Of a stretch of 43,740 nucleotides of DNA, positions 36,313 to 43,740 are shown in pieces (position 1 is the first letter of the stretch; each line of letters starts with the position of its first letter). The notes under the pieces are model-generated. The model was not told where the DNA came from and did not search any database. It worked only from the letters and a program-made list of their open reading frames with translations. Source of the stretch: Clostridia bacterium (GTDB taxonomy: Bacteria > Bacillota > Clostridia > Christensenellales > UBA1242); contig JAZSAE010000017.1 of assembly GCA_045601705.1 (NCBI GenBank), forward strand, positions 1-43,740. The letters run 5' to 3'. Made by a program: the position numbers and the translations under genes.

Positions 36313-39300
36313 TTATTTTACAGGTTGTTCGTTTTCAACAATAGCAACTTTAGTTTTCTTATCACGACAGAAAATTGCGTAGAAAGCTGGAACAACAAGC
36401 AAAGTAGTAATTGTACCAAATAACAAACCACCGATTGAAACTACAGCCAATGGTTGCATCAACGCACCACTACCACCTGGATTAAAGAAAGACCAACCAA
36501 ACGCCATCGGCACCATTGCTAAAATTGTGGTCAATGCTGTCATAAAGATTGGACGTAAACGAGTACGTACCGAAGCAACTAACGCTTCTTTCACCGACAA
36601 ACCGTCACGACGTGCTTGGTTGGCATAGTCAACAGCTAAGATACCATTGTTAATGACAACACCCATCAAAATTAAACAACCAATCAACGCTGGAAGTGAC
36701 AAAGGCATATTGCACATTGCTAACAAGATGAAAGCGCCAGTGAAACCTAACGGAACACAAATCAAAATAATAAATGGCATCAAGAATGATTGGAAAATTG
36801 CCACCATTACTAAATAAATCAATAAGAAACCAACCAACAAAGCCATACCCATTGAGGAATATGTTTCGGTCATTTGTTCTTCAAAGCCATTATCCAAAAT
36901 TGAAACTGACTTATCTTTGAAGTCGTCACTGTTCATCAATTCGTCTAAGTATTGATTCAAAGTGGACTGAATTTTAGTTGTATCAGCACTCGGATTAGCT
37001 TTGATTGAAATGGTTGCAGCATAACGACCGTTACTTTTTACAATCTTCACACCTTTGTTTTGGTCATAGATAACGGCACGGATACCAAGTTCATCCATCT
37101 TATCGGCAAACTTATTTTCCAAAGCCACACTAAAATCATCAAGCACACCACAAGCAACTTCGTAAGCCGTTTCTGTTGCATTGGCACGCGCATCAACTGT
37201 CAAAGTAACCGAAACTTCATTTGCCATTAGACCACTTGCCATAGAAGATGTTGCCACGTCAAAATCTGCAAAATAATTATTTTCATAATTTTGCAAAGCA
37301 TTATAAAGTTTTTCACTTGCTTGGTCGGTTGTCAGACTACGGTCGTCTTTTAATTTAACTTCCATTGTAATTGAAGCAACACCACCAGATAATACGTTCG
37401 CACCTGAATCATAGGCAATCACACATTTTTCAATATCATTACCTAAAACATCCATTACTTCATTGTATAAAGGTTGCGCTAAATCCTTTTCAGTATTCTT
37501 ATCAGCCACTTTGTTACCTGCAACTAATTTACCGTCAGTTGTTAAAGCAGCCGAAATGCTCAAAGTTCCTTCGTCGGTTGATGGCATTAAAATGAAGCCA
37601 TTGACCAACAATAAGCAAGCCGAACCAATAAACAAAACAAAAGCCAAAACAACAGTTAACCATTTTTTGTTAATGGCAAAGCGCACAGTCTTTTCAAAAA
37701 CTCGACCGGCTTTTTCACAGAAACTACTCCACCCGGTACACATTTTTTGCCAAAAGTTTGGTTTCTTATTTGCAACAACAACTTTCTCTTGTTTGGGATT
37801 GATTTTGAAAGTTGATACAATTGATGGCAAGAACATAACAGCCACCACAAAGGAACAAATCAAAGATAAAATCACAACCCAAACCAAGTCGATGAAGATT
37901 TCCATCATCATACCTTCCAAGAAAAACATTGGGAAGAAAACGCAGATGGTGGTCAAAGTTGAAGCCAACATCGCCATCATAATTTGTGACGCACCCTTAA
38001 CACACGCATCCTTCAGCGACATACCTTTGTTACGTAAACGGAAAATATTTTCCAATACGACAACCGAATTATCAACCAACATACCAACAGCCAAAGCTAA
38101 ACCAGCCATTGAAATGATGTTTAAATTGATTCCCATAAAATACATTGCAACAAAAGTTCCAACCAAAGCCAACGGGATTGAAATACCAATTGCTAAAGTC
38201 ATTTTGATTGAACGCAAGAACAAGAACAAAACGATTAAAGCTAAAACACCACCAACAATTAAGTTTTCACCGACCGAACCAATTGATTCGTTAATGTAAT
38301 CGCCTTGACTACTGATAATATCGTAAGTAAAGTTTGGATTTTCAGCTTTCAATTTTTCCAAAGTCACAATTACATTCGCACAAACTTCGGTTGTTACAGC
38401 ATTACTGCTCTTTTGAATCGCAATACTGTAAGTATTAACTAAACCGTCTTTAGAACTTTGCCAAGCTTGGTCTTGGTTGGTCATACTGCTGTCAATGTTC
38501 GATGAAACCGTACCAACACCAACCGTTGTCGAAATTTTATTCAAAACTTCATTTTCCAACCATTCTTGCTTTTTATCATCATCAGTTTCACCTTCGTAAG
38601 CCACAGTCACGTTCATTACAGCCAACAACGATGGGTCAATTTTCAAAATAGTTTTGTTAAATTTTGTTCCATAAGCCACAGTATCGTCCAAAGCCATATT
38701 TTCAAAAGCCAAAGACAATGCCGTTAAATCCACGGTCGCATCGCTGTTGTATTCCAAAGTCAACATCACCAAACCAAACTGGAACATTGTCGTACTACTG
38801 GTGTTTTTAATACCATTCACACCAGACAAAGCCAACAAAGCTTCATCAGTCAAAACTTCCAATTGACGGTCGTTCGGCATTACCGAAGCCAAGATTTCTT
38901 GTGGAGTACCTTCGGTTTGTATATTTAATAAGTAGTGTTTTAAAACCAAGTTCTCGGGATTGATACTGGTCGACTCAATTTGACCTGCTAAAAAAAGCAT
39001 CATTTCGTTAACATCACCAGCCAATACCATCCCCGTAGCATCATCAGTATAACGGTCTTCGTTTTCCACTGCTTTTTTTGCACGGTCAACGACATCTGCT
39101 AACTTTTCGTTGTACTGCTCCATTAAGTAAGATTCGTTCGGGTTAAGCACCACCACGGCGTATGGCAAGTTCATTGACGGGAACAAATCCACCGACATTT
39201 TAGAGAACGCAAATACGCCCAAAACGATAATTGCCATAATACAAACAAAAACGGTGTACGGTTTATGTACACCGACTTTTGCCAGCCAATTATCTTGAAT

Positions 39301-39333
39301 ATTTTTGTCTAATTGATCTTGATTTTTTTCCAT
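36313..39333 (-). CDS. RND (AcrB/SwrC-like) efflux permease with remodelled extracytoplasmic domains
   Basis: DLFPSM, FLFLRSIK, GMLVDNSVVVLENI, MPSTDEG, GVVINNGIL and RLRPIFMTALTT. Promoter TTGACA-17-CATAAT-8-ATG. Confidence 0.92.
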   Translation of the reverse strand: MEKNQDQLDKNIQDNWLAKVGVHKPYTVFVCIMAIIVLGVFAFSKMSVDLFPSMNLPYAVVVLNPNESYLMEQYNEKLADVVDRAKKAVENEDRYTDDATGMVLAGDVNEMMLFLAGQIESTSINPENLVLKHYLLNIQTEGTPQEILASVMPNDRQLEVLTDEALLALSGVNGIKNTSSTTMFQFGLVMLTLEYNSDATVDLTALSLAFENMALDDTVAYGTKFNKTILKIDPSLLAVMNVTVAYEGETDDDKKQEWLENEVLNKISTTVGVGTVSSNIDSSMTNQDQAWQSSKDGLVNTYSIAIQKSSNAVTTEVCANVIVTLEKLKAENPNFTYDIISSQGDYINESIGSVGENLIVGGVLALIVLFLFLRSIKMTLAIGISIPLALVGTFVAMYFMGINLNIISMAGLALAVGMLVDNSVVVLENIFRLRNKGMSLKDACVKGASQIMMAMLASTLTTICVFFPMFFLEGMMMEIFIDLVWVVILSLICSFVVAVMFLPSIVSTFKINPKQEKVVVANKKPNFWQKMCTGWSSFCEKAGRVFEKTVRFAINKKWLTVVLAFVLFIGSACLLLVNGFILMPSTDEGTLSISAALTTDGKLVAGNKVADKNTEKDLAQPLYNEVMDVLGNDIEKCVIAYDSGANVLSGGVASITMEVKLKDDRSLTTDQASEKLYNALQNYENNYFADFDVATSSMASGLMANEVSVTLTVDARANATETAYEVACGVLDDFSVALENKFADKMDELGIRAVIYDQNKGVKIVKSNGRYAATISIKANPSADTTKIQSTLNQYLDELMNSDDFKDKSVSILDNGFEEQMTETYSSMGMALLVGFLLIYLVMVAIFQSFLMPFIILICVPLGFTGAFILLAMCNMPLSLPALIGCLILMGVVINNGILAVDYANQARRDGLSVKEALVASVRTRLRPIFMTALTTILAMVPMAFGWSFFNPGGSGALMQPLAVVSIGGLLFGTITTLLVVPAFYAIFCRDKKTKVAIVENEQPVK

Positions 39334-39389
39334 AAGTACTTATTATGTACCTAGTTGGAATTTTTGTCAATGACGCTCGTACAAAATTC

Positions 39390-41978
39390 TTACAAAGCTT
39401 TTTTCAAAATGAATGCACCATCGTGATAGAAATTATTATTTGACAAATATGCCTTGCAATAATAATTTTCGCCGTCCGTCCAAACACTATAACCATAGAA
39501 ACTCGGTGAACCAACCCAGGTTACGCGTTCCCAGGTATGTGTTTCCAAGTTAAGTTTAGCCTGTGTGGAACCATTGGAATAATAGTAATCATCGCCATAC
39601 TGCCAAATGTATTCGCCGTAAATGTAATTGGAACCACTCCAACTCATAATTTCCCATGAATTTGTTTCGGTATCAAGTACATAGTGTTCACTGCCATTAG
39701 AATAATATATATCAACACCATCACTCCAAATATTTCTCGCATTTAAACTTTTGTTTGTTGGAACATACCAATCAAAATTCACATTTTCCCAGGTGTTATT
39801 TTCTTTTAAGATATATCGGTCTGAATAATAAGAGTAATAATAATTTTCGCCGTCCGTCCAAATACGATTACCACCAAAACTCGTTAATCCGTTCCAGGTC
39901 ATTACTTCCCAGGTGTTATTTTCTTTTAAGATATAGTGGTTTGAACCACTGGAATAATATGTGTTTGCACCGTCCGTCCAAATACATCTACCATCAAACC
40001 ACGTTAATCCGTTCCAGGTTACGCTTTCCCAGGTGTTGTTGTCTTTTAAGATATAGTGGTCTGAATTTTTGGAATAATAATAATTTTCGCCGTCCGTCCA
40101 AATATCTCTATACGAAGGGTTAAAGCTTTCACGCAAGACGAATTTATGTGCTTCCCAGGTGTTGTTTTCTTTTAAGATATATTGTTGTGAATTATATGAA
40201 TAATATGTGTTTGTGCCGTCCGTCCAAATATCTCTACCACCAAAACTCGTTAATCCGTTCCAGGTTACTTTTTCCCAGGTGTTATTTTCTTTTAAGATAT
40301 ACTGGCCTTCACCACTGGAACAATAATAATTTTCGCCGTCCGTCCAAACACTATAACCATAAAAACTCGTTAATCCGTTCCAGGTTACTTTTTCCCAGGT
40401 GTTGTTGTCTTTTAAGATATATTGGACTCCACCACTGGATTGATAATAATTTTCGCCGTCCGTCCAAATACGATTACCAACAAAACTCGTTAATCCGTTC
40501 CAGGTTACTTTTTCCCAGGTGTTGTTGTCTTTTAAGATATAGTGGCCTGAACTTTCGGAACAATAATAATTTTCGCCGTCCGTCCAAACATTATTACCAT
40601 AAAAATTCGTTACGTTCCAGGTTACTTTTTCCCAGGTGTGGTTTTCTTTTAAGATATAGTAGATTGAATCAACGGAATAATGATAATTTTCGCCATCCGT
40701 CCAAATATATTCACCACTAAAACTCGTTAATCCGTTCCAGGTCATTACTTCCCAGGTGTTGTTGTCTTTTAAGATATATTGATCGTAACCACTGGAATAA
40801 TATGTGTTTGCACCGTCCGTCCAAACATATCTACCATTAGATGGATTAACTTTGGACAAAGATACAGCATGATCTGTTTCTATTTCTTCCCAGGTATGAT
40901 TTGCTTTCAAAATATATTTCGTTGAACCATCGGAATAATAATAGTTGTCACCTTCCTGCAAAATGTTGTAACCATAAAAATTAGTTAAGCCATTCCATTG
41001 CATTGGTCGCCAAGTATTATTTTCTTTATCCAAGATGTATTGAGTATCTTCATTTGAATAATAGGTATTCACGCCATCGTTCCAAATATACATACTATCC
41101 AAACTATTTTGATCACTAAGTCGACTATAAACACAAAATGGTACTTTACTCCATGTCTGTGTGTCAATGTCTAATGAATACTGGTTACCATTGTAAGAAC
41201 AATAATATTCTCCGTCGTTAACCCAAATATTTGAGCCACTAAAACTGGTTACTTCGCCGTTCCATGTGGTTGATGTCCAGGTATTATTTGCTTTGTCCAA
41301 AACATATTGGTCACTGCCATTTGAATAATAGGTTTTATCTTCACAATTCCAAATATAATCACCATTGAAGTTGACAAAGTCACCGTCCCAAGTTTTTTCG
41401 TTCCACGTTTGTGTGGCAACATCAAGTTTATATTGGTCCGAACCAGAAGAATAGTAATATTCTACACCATCAGTCCAAACATAGTCTGAATTAAAATAGA
41501 CATTTTCCAAGCCTTTCCAAGTCATTGCTGCCCAATCACGGTCACGCATATCAACCACAAATTTAGTATTTTCTTCAACCGAAGTTGTTCGCAAACTGTC
41601 ACCTGCGCCGTTCAATTTCCAGCCATTATAAAATTGTGTAGCATTATCATCAATAACCGGCAAATTAAATTCTTTGTTCTTTTGGACAATTTGCAAACGC
41701 CAAATGGCATCGTTAACTTCATAAGTAACGATTGCTGCGTGTTCGTCTAAATTGTCAATGGTATTTTGCAAATCATCGACAATTTTATTTAACTCCTCAT
41801 TTTCGTTGGTTAACTTGTCGTTTTCGTCCGTCAAGTTTTCGTTTTCATTGGTCAACTTATCGTTACGGATTGTCAAACCACTGTTTGAGAAACCAAAACT
41901 AAGCGCAAACAATGTCGATATCGACGCTACAACGACCGAAATGAAAAGCATTAAAATTCGAAACAATTTATTATTCAT
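39390..41978 (-). CDS. Membrane-anchored surface protein: signal anchor, heptad stalk, small beta domain and 17 ~40-aa Trp/Tyr-rich repeats (probable beta-propeller/solenoid)
   Basis: SD AAGGAG. Repeat consensus WEKVTWNGLTSFxGxxIWTDGENYYxSxxxxxYILKENNT. Confidence 0.9.
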   Translation of the reverse strand: MNNKLFRILMLFISVVVASISTLFALSFGFSNSGLTIRNDKLTNENENLTDENDKLTNENEELNKIVDDLQNTIDNLDEHAAIVTYEVNDAIWRLQIVQKNKEFNLPVIDDNATQFYNGWKLNGAGDSLRTTSVEENTKFVVDMRDRDWAAMTWKGLENVYFNSDYVWTDGVEYYYSSGSDQYKLDVATQTWNEKTWDGDFVNFNGDYIWNCEDKTYYSNGSDQYVLDKANNTWTSTTWNGEVTSFSGSNIWVNDGEYYCSYNGNQYSLDIDTQTWSKVPFCVYSRLSDQNSLDSMYIWNDGVNTYYSNEDTQYILDKENNTWRPMQWNGLTNFYGYNILQEGDNYYYSDGSTKYILKANHTWEEIETDHAVSLSKVNPSNGRYVWTDGANTYYSSGYDQYILKDNNTWEVMTWNGLTSFSGEYIWTDGENYHYSVDSIYYILKENHTWEKVTWNVTNFYGNNVWTDGENYYCSESSGHYILKDNNTWEKVTWNGLTSFVGNRIWTDGENYYQSSGGVQYILKDNNTWEKVTWNGLTSFYGYSVWTDGENYYCSSGEGQYILKENNTWEKVTWNGLTSFGGRDIWTDGTNTYYSYNSQQYILKENNTWEAHKFVLRESFNPSYRDIWTDGENYYYSKNSDHYILKDNNTWESVTWNGLTWFDGRCIWTDGANTYYSSGSNHYILKENNTWEVMTWNGLTSFGGNRIWTDGENYYYSYYSDRYILKENNTWENVNFDWYVPTNKSLNARNIWSDGVDIYYSNGSEHYVLDTETNSWEIMSWSGSNYIYGEYIWQYGDDYYYSNGSTQAKLNLETHTWERVTWVGSPSFYGYSVWTDGENYYCKAYLSNNNFYHDGAFILKKAL
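39787..40825 (-). repeat. Array of about 9 near-identical ~120-bp coding tandem repeats
   Basis: Blocks TTCCCAGGTGT, TCTTTTAAGATATA, CCGTCCGTCCAAA and CGTTAATCCGTTCCAGGT recur every 117-126 bp. Confidence 0.95.
41791..41865 (-). repeat. Heptad (21-bp) coding repeats NDKLTNE/NENLTDE forming a coiled-coil stalk
   Basis: Translation reads NDKLTNENENLTDENDKLTNENEEL. Confidence 0.75.
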
Positions 41979-42032
41979 TTGTTCTCCTTTTGTATAGTCC
42001 CAGCATTAGTATGTGGCACTACTACTAAACTT

Positions 42033-42061
42033 ATAATAGAAAAAAAAAAAAAAAAAATCAA
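42033..42061 (-). promoter_or_regulatory. Promoter with a poly(T)18 spacer, candidate phase-variation switch
   Basis: Minus strand reads TTGATT-(T16 C)-TATTAT. The A18 run is at 42040-42057. Confidence 0.75.
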
Positions 42062-42091
42062 GCGATTTTCATTCATATACAAAAACACATT

Positions 42092-42122
42092 AAAAAAGTC
42101 CGCACCAACGGACTTCTTTTTT
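42092..42122. terminator. Intrinsic terminator downstream of the SPFH gene
   Basis: AAGTCCG-CACCAA-CGGACTT with A/T tails. Confidence 0.8.
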
Positions 42123-42138
42123 ATAAGTTTTTATTTTT

Positions 42139-43032
42139 TTATTTTGACTTAGTTGTCTTTTTGGTTGGTTCGGATTGGCTCAATGTTTCTTTAATCGAAG
42201 TAAACAAAGTCGCAACATTTGCTAAATCATTTGGCACGATAATTTTGGTCGCTTCGCCATTTGCCATAACTTTTAAGGCTTCGTAACCTTGCAAAGTTAA
42301 GTAAGCAGCATCAGGTTTTGCTTCCATAATTTTTTCGATTGCACACTTTTGACCTTCGGCTTCGGTAAGCAATGCGATTTTACGTGCTTCGGCTTTCAAG
42401 ATTTCAGCTTCTTTTTCACCTTCGGCAACCAAGATTTTACTACGCTTTTCACCTTCGGCTAACAAAATGTTTTCACGACGTTCACGTTCAGCACGCATTT
42501 GTTTTTCCATACTTTCTTGAATTGCGGCTGGTGGTAAAATGTTTTTCAATTCAACACGATTAACTTTAATACCCCAAGGGTCAGTTGCTGTGTCAATAAT
42601 TTCACGCATTTTGGTATTAACGGTATCACGACTGCTTAAAGTTTCGTCTAATTCCAATTCACCAACAATATTACGTAAAGTCGTTGCTGTCAAGTTTTCG
42701 ATTGCCGACATTGGACGTTCAATACCATAACTGTACAATTTTGGGTCAACAATTTGGAAGAAAACAACGCTGTCGATTTGCATCGTAACATTATCTTTAG
42801 TAATTACAGGTTGTGGACGGAAATCAGCAACTTGTTCCTTCAAAGAAATCATCGGCAATGCACGGTCAATGAAAGGCATAATAAAACGTAGTCCCGTTCC
42901 CAAAGTACGGTGGTACTTACCTAAACGTTCGACAATCACAGCAGTTCCCTGCTTGACGATACGGATTGAAAGCGCCAAAATTACGACTAAGGCAACACCA
43001 ATCACAATAATTGCAATAATCCAAGGTTCCAT
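42139..43032 (-). CDS. SPFH/band-7 stomatin-like protein (QmcA-like)
   Basis: IVERLGKY, VITKDNV, TTLRNIVG, WGIKVNRVELK and MEKQMRAERERR. Confidence 0.95.
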   Translation of the reverse strand: MEPWIIAIIVIGVALVVILALSIRIVKQGTAVIVERLGKYHRTLGTGLRFIMPFIDRALPMISLKEQVADFRPQPVITKDNVTMQIDSVVFFQIVDPKLYSYGIERPMSAIENLTATTLRNIVGELELDETLSSRDTVNTKMREIIDTATDPWGIKVNRVELKNILPPAAIQESMEKQMRAERERRENILLAEGEKRSKILVAEGEKEAEILKAEARKIALLTEAEGQKCAIEKIMEAKPDAAYLTLQGYEALKVMANGEATKIIVPNDLANVATLFTSIKETLSQSEPTKKTTKSK

Positions 43033-43072
43033 ATTTATTTTTTTTATTCTCCTTTTATTTTAATTATGTTTT

Positions 43073-43534
43073 TTATTTACTGGTTGTTTCTTTATCAGTC
43101 TTTGCCGTGTCAACTGGTTGAACAATCATCTTGTTACCTTCCACACGTTCAATTGTCACAAAATCATCTTTCTTCAATTCAGCATCGCAAACAGCAGTCC
43201 AAACGACATCATTGATTTTGATAGAAGATTTACCTTCAACAACATCGGCCAACAAACGAACTTTCTTACCAAAATATTGGTCAACATTAGTTGAAATTGC
43301 TGGCTTCTTTAAAAACTTTTTTACTAAAGGGCGTGTTCCAATAATTGCGACAATTGCCACAATGAAGAAAGTTAAAATTTGCCAAACTAATTCAACCTCA
43401 CAAGCTGCCAAAATTAAGGCAATAATTGCAGCCAACGAAAAGCAACAAGAGAAAAAATCTACCGTGAAAAATTCTAATAATAGTGTCGCAGCAATTACGA
43501 CTGACCAAATAATAATCATCATTGTTGTTGTCAT
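43073..43534 (-). CDS. Short NfeD-family protein (YbbJ-like), partner of SPFH
   Basis: TM segments with LLEF and TRPL, then an OB-fold with WTA and VEGNKMIV. Promoter TGGACA-18-TACAAT-6-ATG. Confidence 0.88.
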   Translation of the reverse strand: MTTTMMIIIWSVVIAATLLLEFFTVDFFSCCFSLAAIIALILAACEVELVWQILTFFIVAIVAIIGTRPLVKKFLKKPAISTNVDQYFGKKVRLLADVVEGKSSIKINDVVWTAVCDAELKKDDFVTIERVEGNKMIVQPVDTAKTDKETTSK

Positions 43535-43553
43535 CTTTATATTGTATCAAAAA

Positions 43554-43740
43554 TTATTTTCTTTTGTCCACTTTTTTGTCCACTTTTTTTTGCAAAGCGC
43601 TGATACGCTCACGGTACTGAATCGCTAATTCAAAGTTTAAATTCTGACTGGCAGCATTCATCAATTCCGTCAACTGTTCAATTGTCAACTCATCTTGAAC
43701 AGCCGAATTTTCGCCCTGCTCTTTTTGTGTAATATACAAA
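43554..43740 (-). CDS. uvrB: C-terminal UVR domain, probably the end of excinuclease subunit UvrB (truncated by the window edge)
   Basis: IEQLTELMNAASQNLNFELAIQYRERI matches the UvrB/UvrC motif at the very C-terminus. Confidence 0.65.
   Translation of the reverse strand, partial: LYITQKEQGENSAVQDELTIEQLTELMNAASQNLNFELAIQYRERISALQKKVDKKVDKRK

Follow-up and report, generated by a model that had tools for sequence, protein, structure and literature searches.

In the variable lymphocyte receptors (VLRs) of lampreys, as in leucine-rich repeat and ankyrin binders, a conserved repeat framework carries diversity at a few positions per repeat that lie on one surface. Kelch propellers such as KLHDC2, KLHDC3, LZTR1 and Keap1 are assembled from four-stranded blades, six per domain, with the B–C and D–A loops forming the substrate-binding face. 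The targets of diversity-generating retroelements (DGRs), among them Mtd and TvpA, combine a rigid scaffold with few hypervariable positions rich in Tyr, Ser, Asn, Asp and Gly, some of them NNY codons. As set out in part of PMC5758913, their variable region (VR) is carried in C-type lectin or Ig folds, and every reverse-transcribed template adenine is subject to A-to-N change. In Mycoplasma hyorhinis, the members of the vlp multigene family share a promoter and 5' region and contain internal tandem repeats. Changes in a promoter poly-A tract switch them ON or OFF, and the gain or loss of repeats varies their size (passages of PMC10502178). Here, a tandem repeat array with hypervariable codons is described in a 43,740-nt stretch of DNA (the window, contig JAZSAE010000017.1, to whose positions all coordinates refer) from Clostridia bacterium GCA_045601705.1, a metagenome-type assembly of 836,631 bp in 73 contigs that is 92.5% complete. 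The array, at 39784–40837 (period 120, 8.8 copies, 76% matches by Tandem Repeats Finder), sits within a minus-strand open reading frame (ORF) of 862 aa, referred to as C17 (Table 1). It probably encodes blades of a membrane-anchored, Kelch-like propeller surface protein that were amplified recently and whose loops then came under diversifying selection.

As in Kelch propellers, the repeats of C17 are modelled as four-stranded blades, six per domain, and by strand order its variable residues would belong to the loops of the Kelch substrate face. C17 differs in that no Pfam Kelch family matches it at E values up to 1, in having a 40–41-residue motif of its own, and in being a bacterial, membrane-anchored protein with several propellers. 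With DGR targets it shares the rigid scaffold and the few hypervariable positions rich in Tyr, Ser, Asn, Asp and Gly; unlike the targets covered in that part of PMC5758913, it has a propeller fold, shows no adenine specificity, and has its variable codons spread over at least nine tandem blades, not gathered in one 3' VR; no reverse transcriptase (RT), template repeat or Avd was found in the 92.5%-complete assembly. There is no sequence relation to the Vlp proteins, although C17 likewise belongs to a gene family whose members share a promoter and 5' region and carry internal tandem repeats, and the family promoter contains a homopolymer whose length differs between genomes; by analogy, ON/OFF switching is a candidate property of the family. 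Because the first 35 residues contain no Cys, the N-terminal anchor is not a lipoprotein signal, and the repeats are folded propeller blades rather than short low-complexity units. The genome encodes penicillin-binding proteins and Mur ligases, and the bacterium therefore has a peptidoglycan cell wall, unlike mycoplasmas. Compared with the lamprey VLRs, the diversity of C17 is germline, lying among blades and paralogues, with no somatic assembly.

The repeats of C17 form Kelch-type propellers in a structural model

Counted by anchoring on an [IV]W motif, C17 contains 17 repeats of ~40 aa, numbered here as blades 1–17; repeats 6–14 of a first-pass annotation, made from the sequence alone, correspond to blades 6–14. 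The blade unit of 40–41 aa follows the motif TWNGLTSFxGxxIWTDGxNYYYSxxSxQYILKxNNTWEKV. An AlphaFold2 model of residues 150–862 (713 residues), built on an alignment of 50 sequences, showed a mean predicted local distance difference test (pLDDT) score of 78.5, with 362 of the 713 residues at 90 or higher and values above 90 across most of residues 379–850. Each repeat in the model forms four strands (IWTD, NYYYS, YILK and TWEKV), after which comes a loop of 13 residues (TWNGLTSFxGxx). Comparison with 48,161 chains using VIA-align separated two domains, residues 227–456 of the model (blades 6–11) and residues 465–713 (blades 12–17), and in the model together with these alignments six four-stranded blades close into a propeller. 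The best matches of model residues 465–713 were six-bladed Kelch propellers (Z 11.8–12.0, root mean square deviation (RMSD) 3.5–4.0 over 236–245 residues), with KLHDC2 (8sh2_B) aligned over 245 residues at Z 12.0 and RMSD 3.9, followed by KLHDC3 (Z 12.0), RAG2 (Z 11.9) and LZTR1 (Z 11.8). The domain formed by blades 6–11 (VIA-align rows over model residues 223–469) matched other six-bladed propellers at lower Z scores of 7.8–8.7, and a Foldseek search with the whole 713-residue model returned multi-propeller proteins alone, at TM-scores of at most 0.25.

Searches of Pfam, NCBIfam and PDB sequences returned nothing on the repeats and only sub-threshold coiled-coil matches, which cover residues 23–100. 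A profile of 50 homologues reached a best E value of only 0.35 against PDB sequences, and the scores from an ESM Atlas features search (at most 0.85) serve as leads only.

Two stretches vary in each repeat, as the first-pass annotation had recognized: the SxxSxx hairpin and the terminal part (FxGxx) of the long loop between blades. The variable residues occupy the hairpin that joins strands 2 and 3, together with the last positions ahead of strand 1 of the next blade, and the same columns are those of high entropy in 425 canonical repeats drawn from distant homologues (114 of 120). Given this strand order and the topology of Kelch domains, both variable loops should lie on one face, the top, ligand-binding face of the propeller. 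The annotation had proposed a structural model as a way to see whether the variable residues share one face; the model gives two confident propellers, and a shared face is suggested by strand order and topology. Residues 5–30 are predicted from their hydrophobicity to be a transmembrane segment, and the protein is probably surface-exposed and ligand-binding, with an adhesin- or lectin-like function.

A young block of blades with an excess of amino-acid change in the loops

Scaffold DNA identity is 74–97% among blades 5–14 (83–97% among blades 6–14), and 42–68% between blades 5–14 and blades 1–4 and 15–17, delineating a young amplified block that contains the array. The loop codons of the young blades are 29–71% identical, and the range is the same among the old blades. 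Across the nine repeats 6–14, 8 loop codons and 23 scaffold codons per repeat were compared. By Nei–Gojobori counting, the proportions of synonymous (pS) and non-synonymous (pN) differences were 0.22 and 0.09 in the scaffold (pN/pS 0.42) and 0.18 and 0.545 in the loops (pN/pS 2.95), while the loops of the old blades gave 0.82 and 0.44 (pN/pS 0.54). The scaffold had been described in the first-pass annotation as frozen and almost invariant even at silent sites. This holds for the runs TGG AAC GGA TTA ACG, TGG ACG GAC and TAT ATC TTA AAA, which are invariant or nearly so, but not throughout, as the mean pairwise synonymous difference of 0.22 across the scaffold codons shows.

The excess of amino-acid change in the loops was also evident in two further tests. 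Measured against the consensus unit, the loops carry 68.1 non-synonymous and 3.9 synonymous changes (binomial p between 0.002 and 4e-6 according to kappa). When a codon model was fitted by likelihood to the 8 loop codons, the freely estimated omega reached its upper bound and omega = 1 was rejected (p ~6e-6), with 2dlnL 20.6 on a scaffold-derived tree and 19.7 on a star tree. The scaffold omega was 0.70, not different from 1.

In the sequence of events that we favour, a founder blade would have been amplified recently to give blades 5–14, which would have inherited its codons including their third bases. Single-base changes at codon positions 1 and 2 would then have been fixed by diversifying selection at ~8 positions per blade, within the strand 2–3 hairpin and at the end of the loop leading into the next blade, on the top face if the Kelch topology applies. 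We infer selection rather than an unknown targeted mutator as the cause of the excess.

Several points weigh against this reading. The selection tests cover 8 codons in nine related repeats in which non-synonymous change is saturated, and a conservative minimum-change contrast of positions 1 and 2 with position 3, in loops and scaffold, did not reach significance (Fisher p = 0.15). Omega would also be inflated by any constraint on the third bases themselves. Loop pN/pS exceeds 2 in only two of seven family genes and is 0.68–1.09 in the other five. An excess at positions 1 and 2 is also what an AAY-targeted mutator would produce, and the case against such a mutator comes from the adenine controls described below, not from omega. 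The placement of the loops on one face derives from strand order and the topology of Kelch domains, and assembly errors may have altered the order and number of the near-identical blades, as the genome is a metagenome-type assembly in 73 contigs.

Gene conversion and the uniform scaffold

The uniform scaffold could alternatively belong to old blades that are homogenized by gene conversion while selection protects old, diverged loops. Such concerted evolution is unlikely here, although two observations fit it: family genes have a gene-specific silent-site signature, with scaffold pS of 0.28–0.50 within genes and mostly 0.42–0.69 between them, and the loop codons of the young blades have diverged as much as those of the old ones. 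However, the silent sites of loops that have long escaped conversion should have reached saturation, as in the old blades (pS 0.82), whereas the loop pS of the young blades is not above that of the scaffold, and column-specific third bases, for example NNC, are common to the young blades. The equal synonymous divergence of loops and scaffold fits a young amplified block and makes recent amplification likelier than prolonged conversion that spares the loops, so that gene conversion is not needed. Diversifying selection combined with homogenizing conversion had been one of the two mechanisms offered in the first-pass annotation; its first component is retained, omega = 1 having been rejected, its second is dispensable, and recent blade amplification is the likelier origin of the uniform scaffold.

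Sources of the NNT and NNC codon pattern

A codon table of repeats 6–14 reproduced the lists of variable codons that had first drawn attention to the array, with a single omission. The codon before I/V-W and the second loop codon after Ser are NNT in all nine repeats, and the conserved Gly is preceded by an NNT codon in eight of nine, repeat 12, which had been left out, having TCG. The fourth loop codon is NNC in seven of nine, the remaining two being GAT and CAA. These columns are nevertheless a chosen subset, as four further loop columns have mixed third bases (AGA/GAA/AAT/TAT; AGT/GTT/GAA/AAA/TAT; TCA/GGA/GAA/TAC; CAA/CAC/CAG/TAC/CGA). By minimum-change counting, the third position changed 8 times over the 8 loop codons and 10 times over the 23 scaffold codons.

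The pattern has three sources, namely descent from a founder unit, a preference for Y, S, N, D and G, which have NNY or NNT codons, and T-biased codon usage. In the distant homologues, the three columns listed as NNT prefer these same five residues, and residues with NNR codons only (K, E, Q, M, W) make up 4–7% there. T/(T+C) is 0.73–0.87 genome-wide (404 ORFs, 189,235 codons) and Tyr is encoded by TAT in 80–95% of cases in the seven family genes tallied. The pattern is stronger than genome codon usage predicts: Asn and Asp are only about half T-ending within the C17 gene yet T-ending at the listed loop columns, and shared descent is therefore needed, not bias alone. In 52 repeats from seven family genes, five scaffold columns have T at position 3 in 49, 49, 51, 48 and 47 repeats and four loop columns in 45, 51, 45 and 45, while other scaffold columns hold C in 42 of 52 or G in 42 of 52. 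Because non-variable columns are equally conserved, retention of the third base is not peculiar to the variable codons. The codons observed (AAT, AGT, GGT, GAT, TAT, TGT, CGT and GTT) are linked by single steps at positions 1 and 2, and a third-position change in them would be silent or yield a stop or K, E, R or W, which are disfavoured at these columns. An NNY pattern of the kind taken as a DGR footprint can thus arise without a retroelement, since repeat amplification, a loop preference for Tyr, Ser, Asn, Asp and Gly, and T-biased codons suffice.

It is improbable that the loops are simply unconstrained, with no adaptive diversification and with the NNT look produced by amino-acid preference and codon bias. 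The preference for Y, S, N, D and G is indeed family-wide, codon usage is T-biased, the minimum-change contrast was not significant, and loop pN/pS is ~1 or lower in five of seven genes, as in the paralogue C16 (pS 0.37, pN 0.30, pN/pS 0.80 over 7 repeats; pS 0.41, pN 0.37, pN/pS 0.91 over 8 repeats). Unconstrained loops are, however, at odds with the rejection of omega = 1 for C17, with loop pN/pS values of 2.4–3 in C17 and 2.3 in G005_C8, a gene of the sister genome G005, and with the Asn and Asp codons, only about half T-ending in the gene yet T-ending at the listed loop columns.

Contigs from other samples and the integrity of the array

Contigs from four gut metagenomes (X1, X2, X3 and X7) contain pieces 95–99% identical to the flanks and to parts of the gene. 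Inside the array they offer short pieces and ambiguous joints only, some of which skip ~400–630 bases; one joint, from 40105 to 40872 with 43 other letters, is present in both X1 and X2. Such joints may represent real differences in blade number or mis-placement among near-identical blades, and nothing is drawn from them. That the array as a whole is an artefact, with strain variants of fewer blades strung into a longer array during assembly, is very improbable: blades do have identical stretches exceeding assembly k-mers, other samples' contigs show joints that skip or go back within the array, and several paralogues end at contig ends, but the array lies inside a 43.7-kb contig and within an unbroken ORF, its blade number agrees with 6 + 6 blades folding at pLDDT >90, and arrays of the same kind occur in paralogues and in genes of other genomes.

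The codon pattern is not the footprint of a diversity-generating retroelement

DGR-like adenine mutagenesis, in cis or in trans, that rewrites the AAY codons of each blade is rejected and keeps next to no probability, even though NNT fills 26 of 27 cells in three loop columns and NNC seven of nine in another, the residues observed are those reachable by AAY-to-NNY change, and the excess at codon positions 1 and 2 would fit as well. Retrohoming in trans had been the other mechanism put forward in the first-pass annotation, with the caveats that scaffold adenines are unmutated and that the window lacks an RT and a template repeat; the caveats extend to the 92.5%-complete genome, and the mechanism is not supported. 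RVT_1 (PF00078) gave no match at E values up to 0.01 in the genome, while control genomes do match it in the same search, and the best score for Avd (PF05635) was 13 bits against a cut-off of 33.8, within a 796-aa ORF. BLASTN and TBLASTN of the array over the 73 contigs found paralogous coding genes only and no non-coding template copy, with the 8% of the genome that is unassembled lying outside the search.

The adenines themselves argue in the same direction. All nine blades retain 19 of the unit's 35 consensus adenines, and 11 of the 22 nucleotide columns in which at least three of nine blades depart from the consensus have a consensus of G, T or C. Silent third-position adenines are retained in 39 of 39 cells in the nine blades and in 46 of 47 in six canonical blades, including that of the TCA codon in the middle of loop 2. 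These are the cleanest control, because selection at the protein level could not hide mutagenesis there, and they provide an internal means of telling a DGR from a non-DGR reading of such patterns. Further loop columns vary at position 3, and the fold is a propeller rather than one of the C-type lectin or Ig folds of the DGR targets described in part of PMC5758913.

A promoter-like poly-T site and a replaced gene body

Upstream of C17, two hexamers are separated by a 17-nt spacer (16 T plus C) to which a homopolymer of 18 T gives rise (Table 1). The hexamers are −35 and −10 elements by consensus match only (9 of 12 positions), and the promoter scan overall was not above shuffles. A cassette of the form TTGA-T(n)-C-TATTATAAGTTRAGTAGTAG...ACATACTAA...GGAGAA-ATG is common to six members of the gene family in this genome. 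Its tract is 18 T in C17 and C70, 10 in C16 and 8 in C53, interrupted in C28 and degenerate in C27a, and a variant cassette at C27b has 13 T; across the family, tracts of 6–18 T were seen. The genome holds seven homopolymers of at least 12 A or T, of which four are at family promoters, two are terminator tails and one is unexplained. Tract length differs between genomes at loci with near-identical upstream sequence, with the proviso that assembled homopolymer lengths are error-prone. The tract is 18 T at the C17 locus and 14 T in the sister genome G005, 18 T and 11 T at the C70 locus, and 8 T and 16 T at the C53 locus; the metagenome contig L028, which carries a C53-type locus, has 14 T there, and the C17 and C70 loci were not found in it. 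Metagenome scans for the promoter cassette returned no contigs with a first pattern and one, L028, with a second. Contigs of other samples break at the poly-T tract, from which no inference was drawn. The 5' untranslated region (5'-UTR) also contains a conserved hairpin in which two adjacent pairs switch from CG to UA, a compensatory change, in 3–4 of 9 family members. This layout has the anatomy of a promoter-homopolymer phase switch and, by analogy with vlp, the gene family may be switched on and off by its poly-T tracts.

Two members of the family are decayed, C53:38862-39610 and C27:28222-28828, with in-frame stops or a 58-aa ORF and with short or degenerate T tracts. In L028, with its tract of 14 T, the C53-type locus is intact.

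The syntenic locus of G005 consists of an RND-type transporter gene, a family gene, an SPFH/stomatin gene and an NfeD gene. Identity between the two genomes is 98.5% over 37019–39351 and 97.1% over 41872–43735, yet the intervening 2.5 kb, which starts directly behind the anchor-coding part and runs slightly beyond the stop codon, is only 65–71% identical, the level seen from repeat to repeat. A body of 65–71% identity between flanks of 97–98.5% indicates that close relatives have exchanged the body of this gene. The genes at this position in G005 and in a further genome compared, G018, differ from C17 in the C-terminus, which they share, and their coiled coil resembles that of the paralogue C28. 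Joints in X1 from ~39352 to ~42180 have sides of fewer than 30 letters and are at best a weak echo of this replacement.

Together, the variation of the poly-T tract and the replacement of gene bodies suggest a candidate contingency-locus adhesin family. Tentatively, and with somewhat less confidence than the amplification and selection of the blades, C17 may be a member of a contingency-locus adhesin repertoire that combines three layers of variation in a walled ruminant-gut bacterium with a 0.84-Mb genome. At least eight propeller adhesin loci would share the promoter and 5'-UTR cassette; slippage in the promoter poly-T would turn each gene on or off, the part of each gene from the conserved N-terminal anchor to the stop codon would be swapped as a cassette, and blades would amplify while their top-face loops diversify under selection. 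If so, this would be a Vlp-like strategy built from folded β-propeller binders, and were both the poly-T switch and the cassette exchange real, walled gut bacteria with small genomes would be using mycoplasma-style surface variation with structured binding domains.

A large family of propeller repeats

A word-seeded HMMER search with residues 372–745 retrieved 727 proteins at E ≤0.001 among 7999 candidates scored. The best homologues are only 35–53% identical, and Pfam domains on the repeats are all but absent. Re-scanning nine of them revealed adhesin-type modules (YadA head, Laminin_G_3, phage fibre repeats and Flg_new), while matches in the repeat region itself were weak or spurious; the homologue P0077 contains true Kelch repeats, in a region separate from the propeller repeats. 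The propeller repeat family is thus large and not covered by the copies of Pfam and NCBIfam searched, and a limited literature search found no description of it, which does not establish its absence from print. C17 is a member of a large, unannotated family of Kelch-like propeller repeats that is a candidate surface-variation system.

Within the same genome, TBLASTN identified paralogues labelled C16, C20, C70, C55, C53, C27 (two), C28 and C71, several of which are cut off at contig ends; C53 and C27a contain stops. Of 18 further genomes in the genus, 10 contain the family, against none of 12 genomes from the other families of the order (E ≤1e-10, with this query). The gene's sequence words are most fully represented in gut metagenomes labelled sheep, goat and bovine (shares 0.13–0.30).

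Further features of the locus

The remaining coordinates are collected in Table 1.

Table 1. Features of the C17 gene and its upstream region, in window positions
Feature	Position	Strand	Description
Whole ORF	39390..41978	-	862 aa + stop; predicted transmembrane anchor, coiled coil, small beta domain, 17 blades of ~40 aa
N-terminal hydrophobic anchor/signal, aa 5–30	41889..41966	-	Sequence conserved among paralogues
Coiled-coil stalk, aa 38–80	41739..41867	-	Sub-threshold coiled-coil family matches (DivIC, bZIP, ZapB)
Blades 1–5	40854..41528	-	Old, diverged; low-confidence region of the model
Second propeller, blades 6–11, aa 376–605	40164..40853	-	Six-bladed, Kelch-type; AlphaFold2 pLDDT >90
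Third propeller, blades 12–17, aa 614–862	39393..40139	-	Six-bladed, Kelch-type; AlphaFold2 and VIA-align
Young amplified block, blades 5–14	39780..41000	-	By scaffold DNA identity; contains the array
Segment non-orthologous with sister genome G005	39352..41871		65–71% identity, repeat-to-repeat level
5'-UTR hairpin	41994..42022	-	Conserved; 9 pairs
Promoter-like site	42033..42061	-	TTGATT, 17-nt spacer (16 T + C), TATTAT
Homopolymer of 18 T (coding strand)	42040..42057	-	Between the two hexamers; makes up the spacer

Within the stalk, a 21-bp tandem repeat (41800–41864, 3.1 copies by Tandem Repeats Finder) encodes heptads of the type NDKLTNEN... and could vary stalk length. Between stalk and blades, residues 83–150 (41529–41732) form a small beta domain whose 'F-x-GW' pattern recalls the Listeria-Bacteroides repeat (Flg_new); Flg_new has no significant match in C17, and some homologues carry it.

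On the opposite strand, two ORFs that run across the array (39755–40123 and 40148–40720) have a periodic 'PRCYFLLRY...' translation and are by-products of the repeat, not genes. In the neighbouring SPFH/stomatin gene, summed contig depth peaks at 42350–42523 in the four metagenomes (157, 55, 62 and 17), probably from contigs of other organisms that match its conserved, repetitive Glu/Lys-rich part (33-bp repeats, 42387–42493).

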